A stretch of 64,000 nt of DNA from Thermoplasmata archaeon. GTDB lineage: Archaea > Thermoplasmatota > Thermoplasmata > Halarchaeoplasmatales > Halarchaeoplasmataceae. The stretch covers positions 720 through 64,719 of the forward strand of contig PUNK01000057.1 in assembly GCA_003552585.1 (NCBI GenBank), written 5' to 3'. Positions 8,125 to 62,614 of the stretch are shown here, piece after piece (position 1 is the first letter of the stretch; each line of letters starts with the position of its first letter). Made by a program: the position numbers and the translations under genes. A model generated the notes under the pieces. That model ran no database searches and was not told where the DNA came from. It saw only the letters and a program-made list of their open reading frames with translations.

Positions 8125-9258
8125 ATGGGATTCGTCATGGAATCTATAATTAATGAAGCTCTAAAAAAGCATAAGAAGGAAGAAAAAATTGGGAAAGAAG
8201 ACAAACGAATAGAGAGTATGGAATCTGCACCAGAAGATGAAGAACTTAGAAAACTTGTAGATACACTAGAAGTTAAGATAAGGATTTTCGGTTGTGGAGG
8301 AGGAGGATCCAACACCATCGATCGTCTGACAGAGGAAGGTATCACTGGCGCGGAGTTGATAGCCTGTAATACCGATGCCAATCATCTTCTTCATACACAT
8401 GCTCAAAAGAAGGTTCTCATCGGAAAGAACCAGACAAGAGGATTGGGCGCTGGAGCTAGACCTGAGGTAGGAGAACAGTCTGCACTGGAGGCTAAAGAGG
8501 AACTTCAGAGATACGTGGACGGTTCAGATATTGTATTTATCACCGCAGGAATGGGCGGTGGCACAGGGACAGGTTGTGCTCCCGTGATAGCAGATATGGC
8601 CAAAGAAGAAGGTGCCTTGGTGATGTCAATAGTTACCATGCCGTTCGAAGGCGAAGGCCGGGAAAGGATGAACAACGCTCAACGAGGGCTGATGAAACTG
8701 GAAAGACATTGTGATACAACGGTTGTCATACCCAATGATAGACTTCTTGAATTGGTACCGAACTTACCTTTGGAAGCTGCCTTCAAGGTCGCAGATGAGA
8801 TACTGATGGAATCGATAAAAGGCATCACTGAAATCATCACCAAACCTGGATTGGTGAACCTAGACTACAATGACGTAAGAACGGTTATGGATGAGGGTGG
8901 TTTGGCAATGATAGGAATCGGCGATTCTGATGATCCGAATACCAGAGTAGAGGATGCAGTGTCTCAGGCAATAAATTCACCACTGTTAGGTGATATCGAT
9001 GTTAGCGAAGCCAAGGGAGCACTCATCAGAGTCATAGGTGGACAGGATATGACGGTAACCGAGGCACAAAGGGCAGCAGATCTAGTTAATGAAAAGATAT
9101 CGAAAGAAGCTAGAATAATCTGGGGTTGCAATGTTGAAGATGACATGCAAAATACGATCAAGATCATGTTAGTGATCACTAACGTGCATTCGGATACTGA
9201 AGAATTCGCAAAGATGTCTATGGGTTCTCTGGGTGACGATATAGACTTAGTCGGATGA
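8125..9258 (+). CDS. ftsZ: cell division GTPase FtsZ
   Basis: GGGGSN, GGGTGTG tubulin signature and T7 loop; ~45-aa charged N-terminal extension. Confidence 0.9.
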
Positions 9259-18863: not shown

Positions 18864-20142
18864 GGCGTGTTTGTTTTGATTCCATAGTTTTTAACTTATC
18901 GACAGGGGTTATACTTTCGTCTTCTTCTATAGTCAAGATTGTATCTCTCTCAGGGACGCTGAGTTGTATCTCTTTAGTTCTCCCCCTCCTCCCGAATGAT
19001 TTTACCCGTGCGTTTACCAGGCCTAGCATATCCAGCTCGGAGATGATATCGGTGATCCTTCTTTGTGTGAGGGAGTCCATACCAGAGTGAGCACACAGTT
19101 CTTTATATCCCGCATAAACTTCTCCCGTGGTCAACTTATCATGTCCGTTTTTGTGACTCAATAATATGGAATATAATACTAACTTTGAGTGAGTGGGAAG
19201 TGTGATAACCGCTTCTCTTACACAGTCCTGCTCGATCTTGTTCTTCGCTTTGTAGACATGATTTGGGTCAACTTTACTACATCTTTCCCTCTCTGCTATC
19301 TCGGTTGAAACTCTTAAAAGATCTAGAGCCCGTCTTGCGTCTCCGTGTTCTTGAGCAGCTAAAGCAGCACAAAGAGCCACCACTTCTTCGTCCATGATCT
19401 GTTCCGCATCGAATGCCTTTTTCACTCTTTCATTGAGTATGTCTTTTAACTGTTCTGCATTGTATGGTGGAAAGATCACTTTTTCCTCACCCAACCTGCT
19501 TCTTACTCTAGGATCTAAAAATTCGGTAAACCTTAAATTATTCGATATACCTATTAAACTGACCTTGCTATTTTTCAATTCCGAATTTATTTTCGATAGG
19601 TGGTAAAGTACAGTATCCCCGCTTTTAGCTACGAGCTTATCGAGTTCATCCAATATTATTACGACCACTTTTGGTTTTTTATCGATCCTTTGTTTCAAGG
19701 ATTCGTAAACCTTTTCCATCGGCCAACCAGTGAAAGGTATCTGTTCACTCCAAGATTCCATGAATTTATTACCTATGTTCTTCATGACTCCATAATGAGT
19801 ATCAACGACTTCACAATTGATGTAAACATACTCAACCCTGTCAACATCAAATTCGCTTAACTCGCCGTTCAATTCGCTTTTTGTGTTCTCTCTTTTAAGT
19901 CTACCCACTTCCCTTTCTAGATATCTCACCACTGCGGTTTTCCCCGTACCGGTTTTTCCAAAGATGAGAACATTAGACGGGCGGTTTCCTCGAAGGGCGG
20001 TGACTAAAATAGATGCTAATTCGTTTATATACTCTTCTCTGTGAGGTAAGACCTCTGGGATATAGGAAGGACGTAAGATATCTTTGTCCCCTTTAAACAC
20101 CGTTTTGGAGTGCATATATGATGTGAATATATTCTCTTGCAT
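18856..20142 (-). CDS. cdc6: Orc1/Cdc6 replication initiator
   Basis: AAA+ GKTGTGKT plus C-terminal winged helix; 428 aa. Confidence 0.95.
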   Translation of the reverse strand: MQENIFTSYMHSKTVFKGDKDILRPSYIPEVLPHREEYINELASILVTALRGNRPSNVLIFGKTGTGKTAVVRYLEREVGRLKRENTKSELNGELSEFDVDRVEYVYINCEVVDTHYGVMKNIGNKFMESWSEQIPFTGWPMEKVYESLKQRIDKKPKVVVIILDELDKLVAKSGDTVLYHLSKINSELKNSKVSLIGISNNLRFTEFLDPRVRSRLGEEKVIFPPYNAEQLKDILNERVKKAFDAEQIMDEEVVALCAALAAQEHGDARRALDLLRVSTEIAERERCSKVDPNHVYKAKNKIEQDCVREAVITLPTHSKLVLYSILLSHKNGHDKLTTGEVYAGYKELCAHSGMDSLTQRRITDIISELDMLGLVNARVKSFGRRGRTKEIQLSVPERDTILTIEEDESITPVDKLKTMESKQTRLI

Positions 20143-20474
20143 GTTATTATCATCCTGGATGTGAAATTTTTTTATATCTCCTGTTTAAGACCCCTTCGTT
20201 TCAAGTGGAAATCTTATTTACACTTATAGATGGAAGCTTGCTTTGTAATGCTTTCTTTTGTCGCTAATCACTTGCACCTTACAGGAAATGAGGGATAAAG
20301 GACACTATAAAAAAAGCTTTCGTCAGACGTTTACTGAGGAAGTTGTTATAGGTTATTTATACACGTTGTATGACGCTTTATAAAGGTATTTATAGTAATA
20401 ATGTAAACGTTATATATAATTACTGCAGTATCAAAAGAAATATCTGTTTCTCGCTATCCGTTTAAGCCGGAAGA
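20143..20474. other. candidate replication origin (oriC): AT-rich DUE with ORB-like elements
   Basis: TTTCAAGTGGAAAT at ~20199-20212 resembles the mini-ORB consensus TTCCAGTGGAAAC; related copies at ~20491-20504 and ~20530-20539; immediately upstream of orc1/cdc6. Confidence 0.5.
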
Positions 20475-20984
20475 TCATCCGGTAGTGCAGGATTTCAAGT
20501 GTAGTTTTTTCGCTTCTTTCATCCATGTCGGTGGAAATCGATCATTTTCTATCAGCTGGATGATATGATCTAAAGTTTCTAGAGCTCTTTTTTTGTAATC
20601 GCTTCTTAATGTGGATTCTTTGAATTCGTCCATATCTAAGATCATGTAATCAAGATCTGGTTCCGTCCAAACGTCTAGTAAGAGGTCTAGAGCCTTGTAA
20701 CCACCTTCTATCCTTTTCAAAGGAGTACGTATGTCAGAGTAATATCCTTTCAAATTTTTTTCTTTATCATATACTTCAACCACATTGTACCATGAGTCCA
20801 TAGGATCGTATAATATGCCAGAAAAACCATCATCTATCAGAGTGGTATCATTATGGGTAAAAGGTTTTTTTAGGTCGAATTTAAAAGATGAGATGATCAC
20901 ATCCCCTGTATCAGCTACTAGTTCATGCACCCATTCCCTTTCATCTTGTTTTACACGTTCATATCTTACTTTTATCATCTTCAC
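20475..20984 (-). CDS. DUF402 family protein
   Basis: YYSDIRTP ... DLLLDVW...PD...LDMDEF matches the DUF402 pattern. Confidence 0.5.
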
Positions 20985-30925: not shown

Positions 30926-32464
30926 CTATCCAACAACCTTGATAGATTCTCCACCGTCCTGGGTCTCTCTTGGCCTAACTTCAAGAAAGAGCGGCTCAGA
31001 TAAGCCTCCACCGGAAACGATAGCCTCTCCTATGGCTAACCGCTGTATCTCATCAGCAAGTCCTTTTCCAAGTCCTTCCACCGAGGACTCTATGGCTTTG
31101 AGGTCATTTGGGTTGGTTACTTTCAAGATCATTTGTGTATTACATTGGCTCAGAACATTTTTATCGACTTTTGCTGGCCTTTGAGTGACAATTGCTAAAC
31201 CTAGTCCAAACTTCCTTCCTTCACTGGCTATTGTTTGGAATATCTCTGAAGATTCAGTTTTGCCTCTCTGGGGACAGAAGTTATGTGCCTCTTCTGCAAA
31301 CATCATCAAAGGAGGTATCTTATTTCGTTTACGCAATTCAAAAATAGCGGTGGATATCCTCTCCACCACGAAAGCTTGGATGTCAGGATCAGTACCCTTC
31401 AAATTTATTATCGATGTTTTATTTTCCCTCACAATTTCGTCCATCCTTGTACCCTTTGCTGAGAATACATTTTTTGATCCAAGTCTCTCCAGTCCTGAGA
31501 TCACCGATGAGCTGTTTCCCTCTTCATTTTGTTTTAAAATCCTTATAACATCTTCAATATTGTAGAAACCCTTGGCCTCTTCAAGTCTTGACATAGCTCC
31601 CTCAAGGGCACCAACGTTAGACTGAGTTTTATTTACGCCTGTCATATCTAATATCTTTCTCGGTTTCATATTTTTAAAAGTGAACTTTAAGGGCTTAGAA
31701 CCTGGGTTGATCTCAGGGGAGGGGGAGAACTCAGTGATTATATCTCCATAACCTCTTGATTCGACATCGAAATAATTATCTGCTTTTACATCACCAGCTT
31801 TGGCTAACGAAGAGTATTCACCATGAGGGTCTAAAATTATCGTAGTGACTTCATGTTTCATCATCTCTTCAATTATAACTCCCGTAGTGTAACTTTTACC
31901 TGATCCTGTTTTTGCCAGTACAGAAAGATGTTTTTGAGCTATAGAATTAATATTAAGATGTACATTTATATCATGTCCTCTCAATTTGCCAACATATGCT
32001 CCGTTCTCTTCCTCCTTCAAACCTAGCACATCTCTGATCAGTTTGCTATCTGCAAGAAAGATTTTTTCTCCTGCCCTGAATGGATTACCAGGCAATTTTA
32101 GTAAACCTCTTCTGTCTCGGTATCCGATCACCTTTATATTTGCGATCATGGTCTCTTCGATATCCACCTCTTCACCTTGAGAGATCTCTACCGCTTTCTC
32201 GACTGATAAGTTAGTTTTCCGCTCTACACTTTCGATCTGGCCCAATACCCAACCCACTGAAGGATGTTCCATTTTTACATATTCACCTTTATCTACAGCA
32301 TTACACAGATTACATTCTAGATTGGTGATGCCCACATCTCCAAAGGTTACACCGATCAATTTCTCATCAATCCTCTCTTTTTTACTTTCTATTATATCCT
32401 CTTTTGTTAGAGTGCGTTCCTCCTGCATCTCCTGCTCTAGTTCCGTCAGACAGATCCCATCCAT
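30926..32464 (-). CDS. HerA-like (DUF87) hexameric ATPase / helicase
   Basis: Walker A KTGSGKSYTTG, IILDPHGEY, Walker B; N-terminal HAS-barrel-like region; no nurA/mre11/rad50 neighbours. Confidence 0.6.
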   Translation of the reverse strand: MDGICLTELEQEMQEERTLTKEDIIESKKERIDEKLIGVTFGDVGITNLECNLCNAVDKGEYVKMEHPSVGWVLGQIESVERKTNLSVEKAVEISQGEEVDIEETMIANIKVIGYRDRRGLLKLPGNPFRAGEKIFLADSKLIRDVLGLKEEENGAYVGKLRGHDINVHLNINSIAQKHLSVLAKTGSGKSYTTGVIIEEMMKHEVTTIILDPHGEYSSLAKAGDVKADNYFDVESRGYGDIITEFSPSPEINPGSKPLKFTFKNMKPRKILDMTGVNKTQSNVGALEGAMSRLEEAKGFYNIEDVIRILKQNEEGNSSSVISGLERLGSKNVFSAKGTRMDEIVRENKTSIINLKGTDPDIQAFVVERISTAIFELRKRNKIPPLMMFAEEAHNFCPQRGKTESSEIFQTIASEGRKFGLGLAIVTQRPAKVDKNVLSQCNTQMILKVTNPNDLKAIESSVEGLGKGLADEIQRLAIGEAIVSGGGLSEPLFLEVRPRETQDGGESIKVVG

Positions 32465-32566
32465 AATTACTAAACAGCTTCATAATTTAAAAGATTTCCC
32501 CTTAAAAAGGGGATAAAGGGGTTTTTGAAAGACATTTCGTCAGACAATTTATTCTTCATCCAGAGC

Positions 32567-52667: not shown

Positions 52668-55061
52668 TTAATCATCCTCCATAAACGATTCAAATCCCTC
52701 GTTCATCTTCATCTCAATGTGATCGAATCTTTCTTCCCATTTATCTGAAGGAACGTTAGACATCCTACTTAGATCTTCAACAACATCCATCGCCACTATA
52801 TCATCTACTGAAACGCCCTTTTCCACTGCATCCATCCCTCTTTCGTAGAACTCCATCATGATTTCGATCATCCTGAACTGCTTTTCAGGGTCGCAGTAGG
52901 TATCCACATCGTGGAAGGCGTTCTGCTGCAGGAAGTCTTCTCTGATGACACGTGCAGCTTGAAGGGCAAATCTATCGCTTTTAGGAAGAGCATCCGGGCC
53001 GACGAGTTGAACGATCTCCTGAAGCTCCGACTCCTTTTCCAGCAGACGCATGCTCTCTCTCCTGAGTTCATGCCATTTTTCATTAATATTCTCGTTCCAC
53101 CATCCTTTAACCGAATCTAGATATAGAGAATAAGAGCGAAGCCAGTTGACTGCTGGGAAATGACGTTTGTTTCTTAATTCTACATCCAAGGCCCAGAAAA
53201 CCTGCACGATCCTTAGGGTGTTCTGGGTCACTGGTTCTGAGAAATCTCCACCTGACGGACTGACTGCACCGATGACTGAAATCGAACCATCTTCTCCATT
53301 CAAAAGCTCACATATACCTGCTCTTTCGTAAAAAGAGGCTAAAGATGATGCTAGATATGCGGGATAACCTTCCTCACCCGGCATCTCTTCTAATCTACCT
53401 GAAATCTCTCTTAATGCCTCTGCCCATCTAGATGTTGAATCAGCCATAAGTGCAACGTTGTATCCCATATCTCTATAATACTCTGCCAACGTGATCCCAG
53501 AGTACACAGATGCTTCTCTTGCAGCTACGGGCATATTACTTGTATTTGCAATTAAAACTGTACGCTTCATAAGCGGTTCCCCAGTACGAGGGTCCTCCAA
53601 CTCAGGAAAATCCCGTAGTACTTCAGTCATCTCGTTCCCTCTTTCACCACAACCGACGTAGACGACGATATCCGCATCGCTCCACTTAGCTAATTGGTGC
53701 TGGATCACCGTATTATGTAATATCATGGGTGCATTACCGCCTACAAAATTGTGAGTTCCAGGAACGGTAAGATCGTATACATCTTTTGTTTCATCTTTCA
53801 ATTCTACAGATGTAACAGGATCTGGGAGGAAATGATCTAAGTGGTTATGCTCATCTCTTGAAATTCCCACCCTTTCTTCACTCTGTTCATCTCCTTTTGT
53901 TTTATTGATCGCATTCTTCAAAGTGTCTTCTCTAGGTGCTAATAGGGTGTCTCCACTTTGTAGCTTACCAGCCGGTTGCTCTTTGATTTGCTGATCTGAT
54001 GTTAGGACGAAGAGTTTGTGAACCGGTGTCACTTCCACTTCCCGTCCCGAATCGGTTGTGACCACTACAGTACTATCTGTTTTACCTTTATAGATGCATG
54101 TCGCATGCTTTTTAATTATCTTTCCATCATCCATCGAAAGGATGTCCAAAGGATCGTTTAATTCTATCAACTCTTCGTGATCATCAAGGTTTGAATCAAT
54201 TCTCTTGATGCCTTGATCTTTGTACTCTTCGAAAATTTCTTCGATCGCTTTTTTTGTGCCATCGGCTAAGATCACCGGAGTATCTCCGGTTATACATTTG
54301 CCGGTCCCGAACCCCCCGGGTATGGCGGCGGTACCGCCTTTAGCGAGTGGAAAGAATGTATCCAGGACACGCTGTCCGGTGATAAGTAGTTCACCCGGTG
54401 CTTTCTTTCTCCCGATCGGACGTCTTATCCTTACTGGCCACCGCTGTTTCATCTTGATCTCTTCTTCACCGGTGGAAGTTTTTACACGAGCGATAGTATC
54501 TGTTATTGTGTATTCTCCTTCATTGACTATCTCTTCGATTTTCCCGCTGATACCATGAGGCACCATAACTTTGTGTTCTACAACTTTTGTTTCAGGCACA
54601 GTCCCGATGATATCACCTGCTGAAACTTCATCACCCTCTTTAACATCAGGAATAAACTTCCAGTGCTTTTCCTCGTCTAATGGTGGTACATCAACACCAC
54701 GAAGTATGAAATCTCCTGCCTCTGATTTTATGGCCTCCAAAGGACGTTGGATACCGTCATATATCTGCTGTATGAGTCCTGGACCGAGTTCTGCGGACAA
54801 GGGGTCTCCGGTTCGTTTTACGGGTTCTCCAGGCTTCAATCCACCCGTCTCTTCGTAAACTTGGATTGTAGCTACATCTCTCTCTAAGCCTATTATCTCT
54901 CCGATCAGACCAGCTTCACCTACCTCTACTACTTCATACATCTCTGCCCCTTTTAGGTTTCCAGCCTCTACTACAGGTCCAGCGATCCTGTTTATCTCTC
55001 CGACTTGTTCTTTCTTAGGCTTAGAGATACGCTCTATCCGCTTTTCAACATCTTCTTCCAT
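52668..55061 (-). CDS. atpA: A-type ATP synthase catalytic subunit A, interrupted by an in-frame mini-intein
   Basis: 797 aa vs ~585 expected; P-loop GGFGTGK|C...HN|T split. Confidence 0.9.
53712..54296 (-). mobile_element. 195-aa mini-intein in the atpA P-loop (no homing endonuclease domain)
   Basis: starts [13 protein letters not shown] (block A), TPVH (block B), ends [23 protein letters not shown] (blocks F/G) followed by +1 Thr of GKT. Confidence 0.8.
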
Positions 55062-57119: not shown

Positions 57120-60100
57120 TCACATAAACCCAAAGAACACTATTATAAATATCGCTATCAACAGACCGAAGATAGCAAAGGTCTCCGACATAACGCTGAA
57201 TATCATGCCCTTGCCGAATACCTCCTCTCGTTTTGTCACAGCGGCTATGGCGGAACCCGAGGTTATACCCTGACCGACTCCGGATACACCGGCTATACCT
57301 ATGGCAAGCCCGGCGCCGACGGCGGCCACACCCATGCCTACGGTAAGATCAGTATCTCCACCCAGCATGCCGCTGAATACCATGAGCAGTATTCCGATCA
57401 AAAGCCCGTATATAGCCTGAGTTTCGGGAAGTACGGAGAATACCATACCCCTTCCGAACATCTTCTCGTTCTCCGTCACCGTTGCAACTCCACTGGCTGC
57501 GGCGATACCTTGGCCTATACCTGAAAGACCTGCGATGCCAACCGCTAAACCTGCACCTACGCCAACCATCCCAATTGCTAGGTCCAATGGAGGTCCTTCG
57601 CCCAATAAACCGCTGAATATCATAAGTAATATGGCGATCAACAGCCCGTATATAGCCTGAGTTTCGGGAAGTACGGAGAACACCATGCCCCTGCCGAACA
57701 ATTCTTCTTTTTCAGCCACACAACCTATACCGCTGGCTGCGGCGATACCCTGGCCTATACCGGATAGGCCGGCGATACCTACGGCTAAACCTGCACCTAT
57801 AGCTGTCAACCCTATAGCGTAGCCTGATTCACCAAGGACGACTTCAGGGAAGTCTCCTGCTAATAACCCGCTGAATACCAGTAATAGTATGGCTATCAGT
57901 AAACCATAGATGGCCTGGGTTTCCGGTAAAACGGAGAATACCATTCCTTTGCCGAACATCTTTTCATCCTCGGCCACTGTTGCGATACCACCGGAAGCGG
58001 CGATACCTTGGCCGATACCTGAAAGGCCTGCGATGCCCACGGCTAACCCGGCTCCCATACCTACTATACCCATGGATGCTTCCATGGTAACAGCATCTCC
58101 CAGCATACCTGAGAAAACCATCAACAGTATGGCCAACAGTAGTCCGTATATCGCCTGTGTTTCCGGAAGCACCGAGAATACCATACCCTTTCCGAATAGT
58201 TCCTCTTTTTCAGCCACCGTCGTAACACTGCTGGCTGCGGCGATACCTTGACCTATACTGGACAACCCTGCTAGACCTACAGCGAATCCGGCACCAACGG
58301 CCATCATGCCTATGGCTAGACCGGAATCCCCTGCCATTATGGGGTCGCCCTCACCTGCCAGTAAACCTGTAAATATCATCAAAAGTATACCTACGAGAAG
58401 TGCATAGATCGCCTGGGTTTGAGGTAGTGCCTGGAATACCAATGATTTACCGAATTTGTCCGGATCCTCGGTCACTATACCCGCACCCGCCGCACCTACT
58501 ATACCCACCCCTATGCCGGCTCCCATACCGGCTATACCTACGGCTAAACCTGCTCCCACACCGACCAATCCCAAAGATGATTCGATTGAAGTCGGGTCTC
58601 CCAACATGCCTGTGAAAATTAGTAGTAATATAGCAATAAGTAATCCGAATATAGCGAAGGTCTCTGACATCACACTAAAGATCATTCCTTTTCCGAATAC
58701 TTCACTTCGTTTTGCAACAGCGGGTATAGATGCCCCCGAAGTTATCCCCTGACCCACACCCGAGATACCAGCAATGCCTACTGCTAAACCAGCCCCTATC
58801 GCTATCATGCCCAAACCGTGACCTTGATCACCCAACAACGCAGTAGGATAATCCCCTGTCAACAGGCCTGAGAAGACCATCAAAAGGATAGCTATGAGTA
58901 AACCGTATATCGCCTGTGTCTCCGGAAGCACTGAAAAAACCATGCTCTTCCCGAACATCTTTTCGTCGTCGGTAACGGTGGCTATACCACTTGCCGCTGC
59001 GATGCCCTGGCCGATACCGGATAGCCCTGCTATCCCCACGGATAATCCTGCACCGACTCCAACCAGACCTAGGCCTATGTGTAGTGGTTCTCCATCACCC
59101 GCCAATAAACCGCTGAATATCATCAATAATATGGCGATCAACAAACCGTATATCGCCTGGGTTTCCGGAAGTACCGAGAACACCATACCTTTACCGAATA
59201 TCTCTTCATCTTCGGCCACACAGCTTATACCGCTGGCCGCAGCGATGCCTTGGCCGATACCGGATAGTCCTGCGATGCCCACCGCCAAGCCGGCACCGAT
59301 AGCTATCAAGCCCAAGGCGTAACCGGAGTCTCCAGCCATTATAGATGCCGGGTCTCCGGCTAGAAGGCCGGTGAACACCATCAGTAATATAGCTATGAGT
59401 AAACCGTAGATGGCTTGTGTTTCCGGTAGCACGGAGAATACCATGCCCTTACCGAACAGCTCCTCCTTCTCGGCTACTGAAGATATACCGCTTCCCGCTG
59501 CGACTCCTTGGCCTATGCCTGAAAGCCCGGCCACTCCGACCGCGATGCCGGCGCCTATACCTACCATGCCTAGGCCTAATCCGTATTCTCCCAGCATGAA
59601 GGCGTGAATATCTCCCCCTAGGAGACCAGTGAACACCATCAGCAATATTGCTATCAATAAACCGTATATTGCCTGTGTTTCCGGAAGTACGGAGAATACC
59701 ATACCTTTACCGAACAATTCTTCCTTCTCTGAATAAGCGGCTACACTACCGGAGGCGGCTATACCCTGCCCGACAGCGGATAGGCCAGCGATCCCCACCG
59801 CCAAACCGATACCCAACGAGATTATACCTATGGGTAGGGGAACGTAAGCTCCGTCACCGAGAACTCCGGTGAATAGTAACAGTAAAACGGCTATGAGTAA
59901 ACCGTATATAGCTTGGGTTTGAGGTAGTGCCTGGAACACCAAACATTTACCGAATTTATCCGGACTCTCGGCAACGGTACCCGCACCCGCCGCACCGGTT
60001 ATACCGACACCGATGCCTGCACCCATCCCTGCGATCCCAACGGCAAGCCCTGCCCCTATGGCAGTCAAATAAGTTCCACGCTCGTCCCTTTCAACGATTA

Positions 60101-60482
60101 TTTCGATCGAATGTGAATAAGATACATCATCATCCGTTATCTCAAGGGTAACCGTGTAATTCCCCAGCTCGTATTCACGTGTTACATTTTCGGCTATAAG
60201 CTCTTCGATATCCATCGGTCCTAGTTCATATCCCTCTCCATCTCCAAAGTCCCATGAGGCATTAAATGGACCATCAGGATATTCATCCACATCCAAATGG
60301 ATACCGAATTTTATTTCCACTGGCTCATCTTCATCAACGGTGTATATCCTGGCCCTTTCTTCCACAACATCTCCATCAACCATTATCTTTAGCTCGTTTT
60401 CTCCCTCTGCTATGACTGAAGGAAGAAGGGCAGATACGATGATAAGTAAGATGAAAACTATGATCAACCTGTGCCCCTTCAT
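57120..60482 (-). CDS. atpK: A-type ATP synthase proteolipid subunit K as a single 12-hairpin fusion, preceded by a signal peptide and PKD-like domain
   Basis: aa 1-25 signal peptide; aa ~30-135 PKD motif (WDFGDG...YTVTLEITDDD); 12 repeats of ...GxGxAxGxAGxxxxGQGIAA...FGKGMVFSVLPETQAIYGLLIAILL. Confidence 0.85.
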   Translation of the reverse strand: MKGHRLIIVFILLIIVSALLPSVIAEGENELKIMVDGDVVEERARIYTVDEDEPVEIKFGIHLDVDEYPDGPFNASWDFGDGEGYELGPMDIEELIAENVTREYELGNYTVTLEITDDDVSYSHSIEIIVERDERGTYLTAIGAGLAVGIAGMGAGIGVGITGAAGAGTVAESPDKFGKCLVFQALPQTQAIYGLLIAVLLLLFTGVLGDGAYVPLPIGIISLGIGLAVGIAGLSAVGQGIAASGSVAAYSEKEELFGKGMVFSVLPETQAIYGLLIAILLMVFTGLLGGDIHAFMLGEYGLGLGMVGIGAGIAVGVAGLSGIGQGVAAGSGISSVAEKEELFGKGMVFSVLPETQAIYGLLIAILLMVFTGLLAGDPASIMAGDSGYALGLIAIGAGLAVGIAGLSGIGQGIAAASGISCVAEDEEIFGKGMVFSVLPETQAIYGLLIAILLMIFSGLLAGDGEPLHIGLGLVGVGAGLSVGIAGLSGIGQGIAAASGIATVTDDEKMFGKSMVFSVLPETQAIYGLLIAILLMVFSGLLTGDYPTALLGDQGHGLGMIAIGAGLAVGIAGISGVGQGITSGASIPAVAKRSEVFGKGMIFSVMSETFAIFGLLIAILLLIFTGMLGDPTSIESSLGLVGVGAGLAVGIAGMGAGIGVGIVGAAGAGIVTEDPDKFGKSLVFQALPQTQAIYALLVGILLMIFTGLLAGEGDPIMAGDSGLAIGMMAVGAGFAVGLAGLSSIGQGIAAASSVTTVAEKEELFGKGMVFSVLPETQAIYGLLLAILLMVFSGMLGDAVTMEASMGIVGMGAGLAVGIAGLSGIGQGIAASGGIATVAEDEKMFGKGMVFSVLPETQAIYGLLIAILLLVFSGLLAGDFPEVVLGESGYAIGLTAIGAGLAVGIAGLSGIGQGIAAASGIGCVAEKEELFGRGMVFSVLPETQAIYGLLIAILLMIFSGLLGEGPPLDLAIGMVGVGAGLAVGIAGLSGIGQGIAAASGVATVTENEKMFGRGMVFSVLPETQAIYGLLIGILLMVFSGMLGGDTDLTVGMGVAAVGAGLAIGIAGVSGVGQGITSGSAIAAVTKREEVFGKGMIFSVMSETFAIFGLLIAIFIIVFFGFM
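57123..60062 (-). repeat. 12 tandem ~240-260-bp coding repeats (c-subunit hairpins) organised as a duplicated 6-hairpin super-repeat
   Basis: recurrent nucleotide blocks such as gtttccggaagtacggagaataccat at ~240-bp intervals; hairpins 1/7 and 6/12 are pairwise most similar. Confidence 0.8.
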
Positions 60483-62614
60483 TCACTCCCCTCCTTGCTC
60501 GTGGTGAATCTTCTTTCTGGTTTGAAAGGTTTGAATTCCGTACCACCGCCTTCATAGAAGTAACCGAAGAACTCTACGTACTGCAGCCTGAGAGAATGTA
60601 CGAAGGAACCCAAGGCCTGAAGTGAAGCATTGATGATATGTCCTCCAACCAGAACTACAAGGGAAAGTATATAGAAGGGATATACGGGATCGATAAATCC
60701 CAGTCCGCCGATCACCATAATAGAAATTCCAGCACCCATTATTTTTTTATCTTTTGAGAGTGTGGAACGTATGAGTAGAACGGAACCAATAGCTACCACT
60801 ACCAAAGCCATCATCGTTCCCATCGACCCGTCTGCTACAAGATATGCAAGCACGTTGACCGTTAAAGCGATCCCTGCCGTGGCAAGGCCGAGGGCAAGAA
60901 TCCTGGCAAAGGAGAGAAAATCACCCAAAAAACCCGTTAATGCGAAGAATGAAAGTCCTTTAGCCCTGACCACCAGAAGGCCAAGACCAACAACGCTCAT
61001 TATAGCAGCAATGGTGTAAACTGTTCCTGTGAAATCGTACCAGCCAAAGAGCATACCCGATAGGAGTATGAAGCCACCCGGCTGCAGAAGCCACCATGAA
61101 ACGTTCTCGAGTAAGACATGCCTGTAATTCTTCCGTCTTATATGTTGTATCAGGGATAGGACGAGACCTATGTTTATGTATGCCAGCCCTATCAGTAGAG
61201 ATATTATCAAGAGAATCAGCGGTCCATCACCCTCTAGGGTATCAAGAAGAAGTGGTGGATCAAGACCGAAGCGGCCCAAGAGATTAAGATATTCTTCTCT
61301 ATTTGGGCCGAGATATCCTCCCTGGAGAATCCCGAAGATGAAAGTTGATAATCCTGCCGCCAACAGTATCAAAGAAAAGTCCCTTGTACCCTTCTCTATC
61401 TTACCTATGCCGTAATATAAAACTAGAGAAACCGCTATTATCAAACCACCATAAACCGCATCGCCCAACATCAGACCAAAAAAGATAACGAAGGCAGGTG
61501 CAATTATAAGAGTTGGATCGACCTCGTCATATCTTGGAGGTGCGAACATCCTCGTGAGCAGTTCGAAGGGTTTCAAAAGCTTAGGATTATCTAAAGATAC
61601 AGGCACATAATCAGGGTCTCGAGGTTCCTCAGAAACCAATAAACCGTATCCTCTGGACTGCTTTTTTACCTCTCTCTCTACCTGTGGCACCAGGTCTTCA
61701 GGAGCCCACCCTTTGATGATCGCGGTCGTATCGGTCCGTCCGAACTGCTGGTAGGCTTCCATTTTGTTACGGAATATCTCAAGCTCTTCTTCAAGCACAA
61801 AAAAATCGAGTTGATGCTCTTTTTTTTGTTCCACCAATGAGGTGAAGAGATCCTCTTCCTCCTTCTTCATCTCCCTTATTCGCTTATCTAATTTGTCTAG
61901 TACGTCGGAAGGGATACCTTTTAATTGACCGAAGTCAAAGATTTTTACATTTGTCTCCCTCAGCACCATATCCAATCTTTTACGATCTCTTATATAAGCT
62001 CCAGCGATGGCGATGTATTCCTTTTCTTTTCTCCTTTGAAGAATAAGGTGGGAAGTATCTATTTCTGATAGTTTTCTCTTTAGTAGAGTAGTATTTTGTG
62101 TCTTTCCTACACGATATACCGTGTATGGTGAATCACCGATATAGCTGAGATCGATATCTATATCGATCATCTGTTGAACACTTCTGCGGATAGATTCAAA
62201 CTCTTCGATCTTTTCTCTCTTTTTGTTGAGTTCTCTGCTCAGTTTAAGAATATTTTTTCCCACGGAATCCATGAGATCATCTATCTCTTCTTTTAGTGCT
62301 GAAAAATCTTTCATTTCTCTTTTTACAGGTTCGATCTCCTTTGGAAATATGAGATCTTTGATGCCTTCTTCCTTGACTTCTATACTGCTAAAAACGTCTT
62401 GTACGGAGGTAAGTTTCATCTCATACTCGGTACAATCGGATAGATTTTTGTGTATAGAACCATCGTCTATTAAACTGCTCAAATCAGTATCCCTTTCTAC
62501 GTTAGATATCTCTATTTCACCCATGGAATGAAGACCTTCTACAACTTCGTCCAAGTAAGAATCGTGTACGATTATAGTGACGTCCTTCATCCTCTTGGGG
62601 AAGAGTATGTTCAT
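60479..62614 (-). CDS. atpI: A-type ATP synthase subunit I (a-subunit)
   Basis: 711 aa, N-terminal coiled cytoplasmic domain, C-terminal polytopic domain with ARILALGLA (conserved Arg). Confidence 0.85.
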   Translation of the reverse strand: MNILFPKRMKDVTIIVHDSYLDEVVEGLHSMGEIEISNVERDTDLSSLIDDGSIHKNLSDCTEYEMKLTSVQDVFSSIEVKEEGIKDLIFPKEIEPVKREMKDFSALKEEIDDLMDSVGKNILKLSRELNKKREKIEEFESIRRSVQQMIDIDIDLSYIGDSPYTVYRVGKTQNTTLLKRKLSEIDTSHLILQRRKEKEYIAIAGAYIRDRKRLDMVLRETNVKIFDFGQLKGIPSDVLDKLDKRIREMKKEEEDLFTSLVEQKKEHQLDFFVLEEELEIFRNKMEAYQQFGRTDTTAIIKGWAPEDLVPQVEREVKKQSRGYGLLVSEEPRDPDYVPVSLDNPKLLKPFELLTRMFAPPRYDEVDPTLIIAPAFVIFFGLMLGDAVYGGLIIAVSLVLYYGIGKIEKGTRDFSLILLAAGLSTFIFGILQGGYLGPNREEYLNLLGRFGLDPPLLLDTLEGDGPLILLIISLLIGLAYINIGLVLSLIQHIRRKNYRHVLLENVSWWLLQPGGFILLSGMLFGWYDFTGTVYTIAAIMSVVGLGLLVVRAKGLSFFALTGFLGDFLSFARILALGLATAGIALTVNVLAYLVADGSMGTMMALVVVAIGSVLLIRSTLSKDKKIMGAGISIMVIGGLGFIDPVYPFYILSLVVLVGGHIINASLQALGSFVHSLRLQYVEFFGYFYEGGGTEFKPFKPERRFTTSKEGSE

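Follow-up and report, generated by a model that had tools for sequence, protein, structure and literature searches.

The stretch of DNA analysed here, referred to as the window, spans 64 kb with a GC content of approximately 40% and derives from an uncultured soda-lake Thermoplasmata archaeon. It carries an orc1/cdc6 replication initiator gene, the 428-aa product of which passes the NCBIfam model NF001625 for ORC1-type equivalogs (565 bits against a cut-off of 501 bits). A non-coding gap (20143-20474) lies between this gene and a DUF402 gene situated upstream on the same strand. In and around this gap were identified a proximal full origin recognition box (ORB1), a conserved central block with an invariant 11-mer, an AT-rich stretch and a distal, shorter box (mini-ORB2), the coordinates of which are given in Table 1. 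The original prediction for this locus, a probable Orc1-dependent replication origin beside orc1/cdc6, was supported by every available sequence-level test.

For comparison, an Orc1 protein scan of species-representative genomes provided a set of 40 loci. The closest Orc1 relatives are 75-85% identical to that of the window and come from soda-lake and hypersaline metagenome-assembled genomes (MAGs) with the names Candidatus (Ca.) Saliniplasma, Haladaptatiplasma, Natronoplasma and Halarchaeoplasma, which make up the proposed order Halarchaeoplasmatales (PMC11332174). The module formed by mini-ORB, AT-rich stretch, ORB and orc1 is kept in 38-40 species-level relatives, those with differing upstream genes included.

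The candidate origin is adjoined by its cognate orc1/cdc6, with ORB1 located 48-70 bp 5′ of the start of that gene. Read on the orc1 strand (GATTTCCACTTGAAACGAAGGGGTC), ORB1 consists of a dyad, a 4-nt spacer and a G-string. It agrees at 19 of 22 positions with the pan-archaeal ORB consensus CTTCCAGTGGAAACGAAAGGGGT of Pelve et al., as quoted in Table 2 of PMC4153887, its spacer being one base shorter as is also the case in Methanomassiliicoccales. Part of this box, TTTCAAGTGGAAAT at 20199-20212, had been proposed previously as a degenerate ORB element; its place was correct, but the element belongs to a full ORB and is not degenerate. ORB1 is the only match to the ORB consensus in the 64 kb, where 0.00 matches are expected at ≤4 mismatches (100 shuffles), and with a matrix built from the sites of the relatives it scores 39 bits and is again the only full ORB of the window. 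A 21-23-nt element of the form ATYTCCACWTGAAAYRNAGGGGT is present on the orc1 strand, 44-131 bp 5′ of the orc1 start, in 38 of the 40 relatives, although their Orc1 proteins are only 75-85% identical. In the relatives, matches of at least 10.5 bits to the dyad part of this clade matrix number 39 on the orc1 strand at -200 to 0 and 20 at -600 to -200, against five over both strands in what remains of the 340 kb.

The short core of the box behaves differently. The 13-mer mini-ORB consensus at ≤3 mismatches gave 22 matches in the window vs 20.4 expected, and the 14-mer used in the original prediction gave 15 vs 13.6. As a motif found at chance frequency cannot carry the claim of an origin, the full-length consensus and the comparative tests were used instead. 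Between ORB1 and the orc1 start there is also a TATA-like box, the position of which (approximately -35 to -22 from the ATG) resembles that of other promoters in the window and which is possibly the proximal promoter of orc1. It is not kept in the same form in the relatives.

A second predicted element, GATTTCAAGTGTAG at 20491-20504, turned out to be a real though weak mini-ORB. Mini-ORB2 possesses the dyad without the G-string, scores 13.6 bits with the dyad part of the matrix (the second-best match in the window) and is located 294 bp from ORB1 in the same orientation, overlapping the last codons (L-H-L-K-S) of the DUF402 gene. At 275-369 bp from ORB1, 25 of 39 relatives possess a distal counterpart with a score of at least 9 bits, and in nine genomes this score amounts to 19-24.5 bits. 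The distal box is kept whether the upstream gene encodes DUF402, YaaH or something unrelated, which argues that it is conserved at the DNA level. In the window, as in 23 of the 25 relatives for which a distal box is detectable, both boxes share the orc1 strand; in the two others (L015 and L017) a higher score is obtained for the distal box in inverted orientation. With one full ORB and one mini-ORB, the cluster has fewer repeats than most origins described so far, and no ORBs were found downstream of orc1 in the window's clade. Just inside mini-ORB2, a GC-rich hairpin extends over the stop codon of the DUF402 gene; relatives have other GC-rich inverted repeats at the counterpart of this site, accompanied by a GC-rich dip in the profile.

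A third string, GGTGGAAATC, is indeed present at 20530-20539 inside the DUF402 gene as had been noted earlier, but it is coding sequence and was rejected as an ORB-like element. It encodes F-P-P of the conserved (Y/F)PPxW motif of DUF402 proteins, and in relatives the third positions of these codons are free to vary (e.g. TAC CCA CCG and TAT CCT CCC). The likeness to an ORB is put down to coincidence, since relatives use other codons for the same F-P-P.

The approximately 110-bp AT-rich stretch of the original prediction was borne out, with a GC content of 0.24 at 20350-20449. It is positioned between ORB1 and mini-ORB2, and within it 20377-20436 is the most AT-rich 60-bp segment of the entire 64 kb (81.7% AT). 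When 39 loci were aligned on an internal landmark, an AT peak of 76-80% over approximately 65 bp was seen at the same relative place, vs approximately 57% AT in the flanking coding DNA.

The central block of approximately 95 nt with its invariant 11-mer is new to this analysis, having gone unnoticed before. A search with nhmmer located a single copy of the block at the locus of each of the 39 relatives for which enough upstream sequence is available, invariably placed between mini-ORB2 and ORB1, with order and strand unchanged. Read along the orc1 strand, it is made up of a TATA-like pair cTATATAAAnnTATATAAAG, GTCAT-AC, approximately 40 unconserved nt, CCAG, the 11-mer GTCTGACGAAA and nn-TTTT(T)WAT. 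Exactly one copy of the 11-mer, with 100% identity, is present at each locus in 39/39 of the same relatives, which makes it better conserved than the ORB itself. A loose direct repeat, GTCWKAC-RAAAnC-TTTT, is also recognizable, the GTCAT(AC) box being its first copy. The 3′ half of the 11-mer together with the T-run that follows resembles, by eye, the GAAA-nn-TTTTATATA promoters of other genes in the window, and a further conserved box, TTTCCCTAA, is located 41-50 nt downstream of the 11-mer in the 40-locus alignment. This TTTCC(C/T) box is predicted to be the transcription start region of a distal promoter, its distance from the TATA-like run being a fitting one. With a promoter-like T-run and a downstream box where the start would be expected, the element is read as a transcription factor B recognition element (BRE)/TATA promoter facing orc1, preceded by a putative near-palindromic operator (CGTC-T-GACG). 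The small open reading frames (ORFs) of the gap were considered and rejected; they reach only 20-42 aa and the alignment contains 1-nt indels, both of which indicate that the central block is not coding.

The invariant 11-mer and ORB1 are set at preferred distances from each other. These amount to 116-119 bp in 28 loci, 105-110 bp in nine and 85-86 bp in two, the classes being reported for the 37 loci (window included) with both elements, and this spacing is kept while the distance from ORB1 to the ATG varies from -46 to -131. The distance from ORB1 to mini-ORB2 falls into classes of 275, approximately 296, approximately 307, approximately 317 and 369 bp, all of which are approximately 2 modulo 10.5. 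A period of 10.5 bp gives the highest Rayleigh R, with R=0.975 and p of approximately 4e-4 for the class centres, and the distance from the 11-mer to the distal ORB is likewise phased (p of approximately 5e-3). Relative to both ORBs, the block with the 11-mer shifts by steps of approximately 10.5 bp. Since the classes were chosen post hoc and among related loci, this phasing is suggestive rather than proven. Such length changes by whole helical turns would point to proteins bound on one face of the DNA.

The 11-mer is separated from the GTCAT box by 46-48 nt, or by 58 nt in five loci with an 11-nt insertion (L030, L031, L032, L035, and L038). In these five the insertion duplicates the GTCAT box (GTCAT-CGAAATGTCATACGAAAGG) and is compensated by a 12-bp shortening between the 11-mer and ORB1, the distance from GTCAT to ORB1 staying at 163-164 bp. 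In the region approximately 40-110 nt downstream of the 11-mer, they also possess a long inverted repeat, AGACCGGAAA...TTTCGGTCT, which abuts ORB1 and is not present in the window.

The core of the 11-mer is not confined to the origin region. GTCWGACG occurs at four places in the window, namely the candidate origin, two at a herA-like gene and one intragenic at 8323. At the 5′ end of the herA-like gene, ATGGATGGGATnTGTCTGACGGA is kept in six of six clade relatives, the synonymous GGG, CTG and ACG positions included, and this conservation makes the core motif one that is not exclusive to the origin. No counterpart of the exact copy of GTCTGACGAAA further upstream of the same gene was found at its position in the relatives examined. 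Among matches to the herA-like protein in metagenome contigs, nearly all were distant (approximately 50% identity) with no copy of the motif, and both of the close ones were truncated, for which reason the six close relatives were taken by exact protein look-up. In distant Thermoplasmata the motif is absent both at herA and at orc1. Conservation at herA within the clade and absence outside it favour a clade-specific DNA-binding factor common to orc1 and herA.

Table 1. Features of the candidate origin region and of the herA-like gene (positions in the window).
Feature	Position	Strand	Basis
orc1/cdc6 initiator gene, 428 aa	18856..20142	-	Pfam Cdc6_C, Cdc6_lid, AAA
TATA-like box ATATAAAAAAATTT between ORB1 and orc1 start	20164..20177	-	read from sequence
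ORB1, full origin recognition box ATTTCCACTTGAAACGAAGGGGT, dyad and G-string	20190..20212	-	consensus, clade matrix, conservation
Conserved TTTCC(C/T) box	20279..20289	-	alignment of 40 loci
Conserved central block, ~95 nt	20303..20399	-	nhmmer, alignment A2
BRE/TATA-like promoter GAAAGCTTTTTTTATAG, facing orc1	20305..20321	-	T-run and GAAA invariant in A2
Invariant 11-mer GTCTGACGAAA, near-palindrome CGTC-T-GACG	20318..20328	-	identical in 39/39 relatives
Invariant GTCAT(AC) box, 46-47 nt 5′ of 11-mer	20368..20374	-	alignment A2
Tandem TATA-like boxes CTATAAATACCTTTATAAAG	20376..20395	-	conserved as cTATATAAAnnTATATAAAG in A2
AT-rich stretch, candidate DNA unwinding element	20377..20443	.	AT content, conserved peak
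GC-rich hairpin CCGGA-AGATCA-TCCGG over DUF402 stop codon, just inside mini-ORB2	20467..20482	.	sequence
DUF402 gene, upstream of orc1	20475..20984	-	
mini-ORB2 AACTACACTTGAAAT, dyad only, without G-string	20492..20506	-	clade matrix
herA-like gene, DUF87/HerA_C	30926..32464	-	
Second locus of GTCTGACG motif (GTCTGACGGAA), codons 5-8 of herA-like gene	32441..32451	-	
Exact extra copy of GTCTGACGAAA, 74 nt 5′ of herA-like gene	32535..32545	-	

Judged from its sequence, the region 20143-20510 is likely to be an oriC1-type chromosomal origin served by the adjacent Orc1/Cdc6. By analogy with known origins, Orc1 monomers would bind the full ORB1, the dyad TTCCACTTGAAA being contacted by the winged helix and the G-string by the AAA+ domain, and a second Orc1 would occupy the distal mini-ORB2, to which binding is expected to be weaker. 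The AT-rich stretch of approximately 65 bp (20377-20443) may then melt, with MCM being loaded there. The promoter-like module, consisting of GTCAT, the tandem TATA-like boxes and the GTCTGACGAAA-BRE/TATA element, most likely drives or regulates transcription of orc1 through ORB1, and as this transcription would pass ORB1, Orc1 bound there would exert feedback on the expression of orc1 itself. The near-palindrome GTCTGAC(G) would be the site of a clade-specific DNA-binding factor, common to the herA-like gene and built into the origin. Lineage-specific accessory elements inside oriC1 have been described in other archaea, namely ucm with its protein UBP in Sulfolobales (PMC12141716) and a G-rich inverted repeat in haloarchaea (PMC3936714).

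A number of observations weigh against an origin at this site. The GC skew at third codon positions (GC3) keeps its sign at 20.3 kb, with a side effect of -0.022 ± 0.02 over the 64 kb, and this skew and the corresponding AT3 skew follow only the strand of the genes; with 64 kb being short and skew being weak in many archaea, the result neither supports nor refutes an origin. Genes do not diverge from the site, there being 14 on the plus and six on the minus strand to its left and 20 and 19, respectively, to its right. Mini-ORB2 is weak in this genome and lies inside coding sequence. The two boxes are direct repeats and not an inverted pair, and no conserved inverted ORB-like site was found from -300 to +200 of the 11-mer or within ±4 kb, an inverted ORB pair being required in Sulfolobus and Haloarcula (PMC12141716, PMC3936714). 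Among the relatives, ORB1 is absent in L011 and degenerate in L008, both of which keep the invariant 11-mer block. Finally, origins with ORBs can be dispensable in some Euryarchaeota, Thermococcus being an example (PMC5663688).

In an alternative reading, the region would be nothing more than a complex promoter of orc1, with ORB1 as the autoregulatory operator of Orc1, GTCTGACGAAA as that of a second regulator common to herA, and replication starting elsewhere or by recombination. The fusion of the 11-mer to a BRE/TATA-like box, as at other genes, would be in keeping with this, as would the conservation of the core motif at the 5′ end of the herA-like gene and the location of ORB1 within 50-130 bp of the orc1 start. 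The skew lends an origin no support, and some Euryarchaeota can dispense with their ORB-bearing origin (PMC5663688). However, a plain operator would leave unexplained the second ORB approximately 300 bp away in helical phase, the conserved and extremely AT-rich stretch between the ORBs, and the constancy of the spacing from the 11-mer to ORB1 when the distance from ORB1 to the ATG varies. ORB clusters adjacent to orc1 coincide with origins in every archaeon mapped so far (PMC4010727), and autoregulation is in any case compatible with origin function. A promoter without an origin is judged to be distinctly improbable.

That the central block is a small non-coding RNA gene, running from the tandem TATA boxes to the T-run after GTCTGACGAAAGC, is very unlikely. 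TATA-like boxes upstream and a T-run downstream would suit such a gene, and its invariant ends (yGUCA and UGACG) can pair, with the C/U variation at one position staying compatible with G-U pairs. On the other hand, Rfam at gathering threshold yielded no family anywhere in the 64 kb, which are also devoid of tRNA genes, and no credible Rfam match was seen at E-values of up to 10 on 20100-20620. RNAalifold gives seven invariant pairs, of which 0/7 covary, the interior of the block is unconserved with 1-nt indels, and the sequence between the 11-mer and ORB1 shows no better folding than its shuffles (mean z of -0.67 forward and -0.54 reverse; +1.3 for the segment in the window). Steps in length of approximately 10.5 bp are moreover a signature of the DNA helix. 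The idea that the ORB-like strings are random matches in AT-rich intergenic DNA, which the chance frequency of the 13-14-nt core and the coincidental third element would allow, is already refuted by the full 22-23-nt ORB, which is unique, unexpected at random and kept in 38/40 species.

A tentative and rather unlikely extension is that the GTCTGACGAAA/GTCAT module, phased with the direct ORBs, would be the docking site of a clade-specific factor that is integral to origin firing and that co-regulates orc1 and the herA-like repair gene. Candidates for this role would be a regulator or nucleoid protein comparable to UBP of Sulfolobus, or a non-initiator Orc1 paralogue such as Orc1-2. Should this docking site exist, it would imply, together with the direct ORBs, that Thermoplasmata load MCM by an asymmetric route unlike that of the Sulfolobus/haloarchaeal model.

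Among the most similar known origins are the ORB pairs beside orc1/cdc6.1 of Methanomassiliicoccales (Borrel et al., 2014; PMC4153887, Table 2), which also belong to the Thermoplasmata. The form of the box is alike, consisting of a dyad, a 4-nt spacer and AGGGGT (GTTCCAGTGGAAATGG-AGGGGTA in Methanomassiliicoccales, ATTTCCACTTGAAACGA-AGGGGT here). Unlike theirs, the distal box of the window's clade is without a G-string and the dyad prefers CACWTG over CAGTGG. Three Methanomassiliicoccales-like genomes have ORB-like boxes 5′ of orc1, two of them with two full direct ORBs and the third with one ORB-like box only, below the matrix threshold. ORB3 and ORB4 of Ca. M. alvus are not marked as inverted (PMC4153887, Table 2). 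Given the direct ORBs of the Methanomassiliicoccales-like loci, the direct arrangement may be a trait of the class. The invariant GTCTGACGAAA block was absent from the Methanomassiliicoccales-like orc1 loci, which marks it as specific to the window's clade. In one of these genomes (L119), at approximately position 726, there is a third full ORB, GGTTCCAGTGGAAATGGAGGGGTCC, which is inverted and lies 1.8 kb 5′ of orc1, beyond an HflX-like GTPase gene; no counterpart of an inverted ORB of this type was found in the window's clade.

With oriC1 of haloarchaea such as Haloarcula hispanica (Wu et al.; PMC3936714, PMC4010727), the candidate origin shares an adjacent cdc6, an AT-rich region flanked by ORBs and a neighbouring signal-peptidase gene. 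An extra lineage-specific cis element, an enhancer in that system, lies just inside the haloarchaeal ORBs, and GC-rich hairpins are found just inside mini-ORB2 here. The haloarchaeal ORBs differ in being inverted, both essential and provided with extended G-strings, whereas those described here are direct with a single G-string. The Sulfolobus oriC1 element ucm (Dhanaraju et al., 2025; PMC12141716) is likewise a short (11 bp), highly conserved non-ORB motif in an AT-rich spacer between ORBs, and its protein UBP has other genomic sites too. However, the ucm oligonucleotide ATTATACAAAC is unrelated to GTCTGACGAAA and UBP is reported only in Sulfolobales and Desulfurococcales, making the resemblance an analogy and not a membership. 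The ORB2/ORB3 pair of Sulfolobus is also inverted, and the motif described here differs in being fused to a BRE/TATA-like box. As in Pyrococcus abyssi oriC (PMC1904270), where the repeats adjoin the single cdc6/orc1 gene, full ORBs are mixed with shorter mini-ORBs, but no more than two boxes could be detected here.

To a specialist, an origin next to orc1 comes as no surprise, and in this respect the main finding is an ordinary oriC1-type origin, with only the clade-specific motif and the direct, phased ORBs going beyond expectation. It does provide a well-supported origin annotation for an uncultured halophilic order of Thermoplasmata (Ca. Halarchaeoplasmatales-type MAGs). The direct ORBs, seen here and in two Methanomassiliicoccales-like genomes, do not fit the model of an inverted pair at which a head-to-head couple of MCM hexamers is loaded by two Orc1 monomers. 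Whether origin factors analogous to UBP exist in further archaeal lineages is a question raised explicitly in the UBP/ucm study (PMC12141716), and the 11-bp motif offers a concrete bait for such a factor.

On the 3′ side of orc1, the window has a weak signal-peptidase-I-like ORF followed by genes for TBP and dCMP deaminase. The context of orc1, signal-peptidase-like gene and dCMP deaminase is also found beside orc1 in Methanomassiliicoccales-like genomes, in which the gene order is HflX-type GTPase, orc1, an ORF of approximately 310 aa and dCMP deaminase. In haloarchaea, oriC1 lies in a conserved context of GTP-binding protein, cdc6 and signal peptidase (PMC4010727, Fig. 2 legend).

Elsewhere in the window, a 1120-aa ORF on the minus strand (57120-60482) has 12 tandem matches to Pfam ATP-synt_C (E-value 8e-202) and accounts for a GC-rich stretch at 57-60 kb. 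It represents an A/V-type ATPase proteolipid subunit fused approximately 12 times and adjoins a gene for a V_ATPase_I subunit (60479-62614). The fused proteolipid can be likened to the 13-hairpin K subunit of Methanopyrus kandleri. The catalytic A subunit of the A-type ATPase is encoded on the minus strand at 52668-55061 and contains an intein (Intein_splicing domain, residues 263-450).

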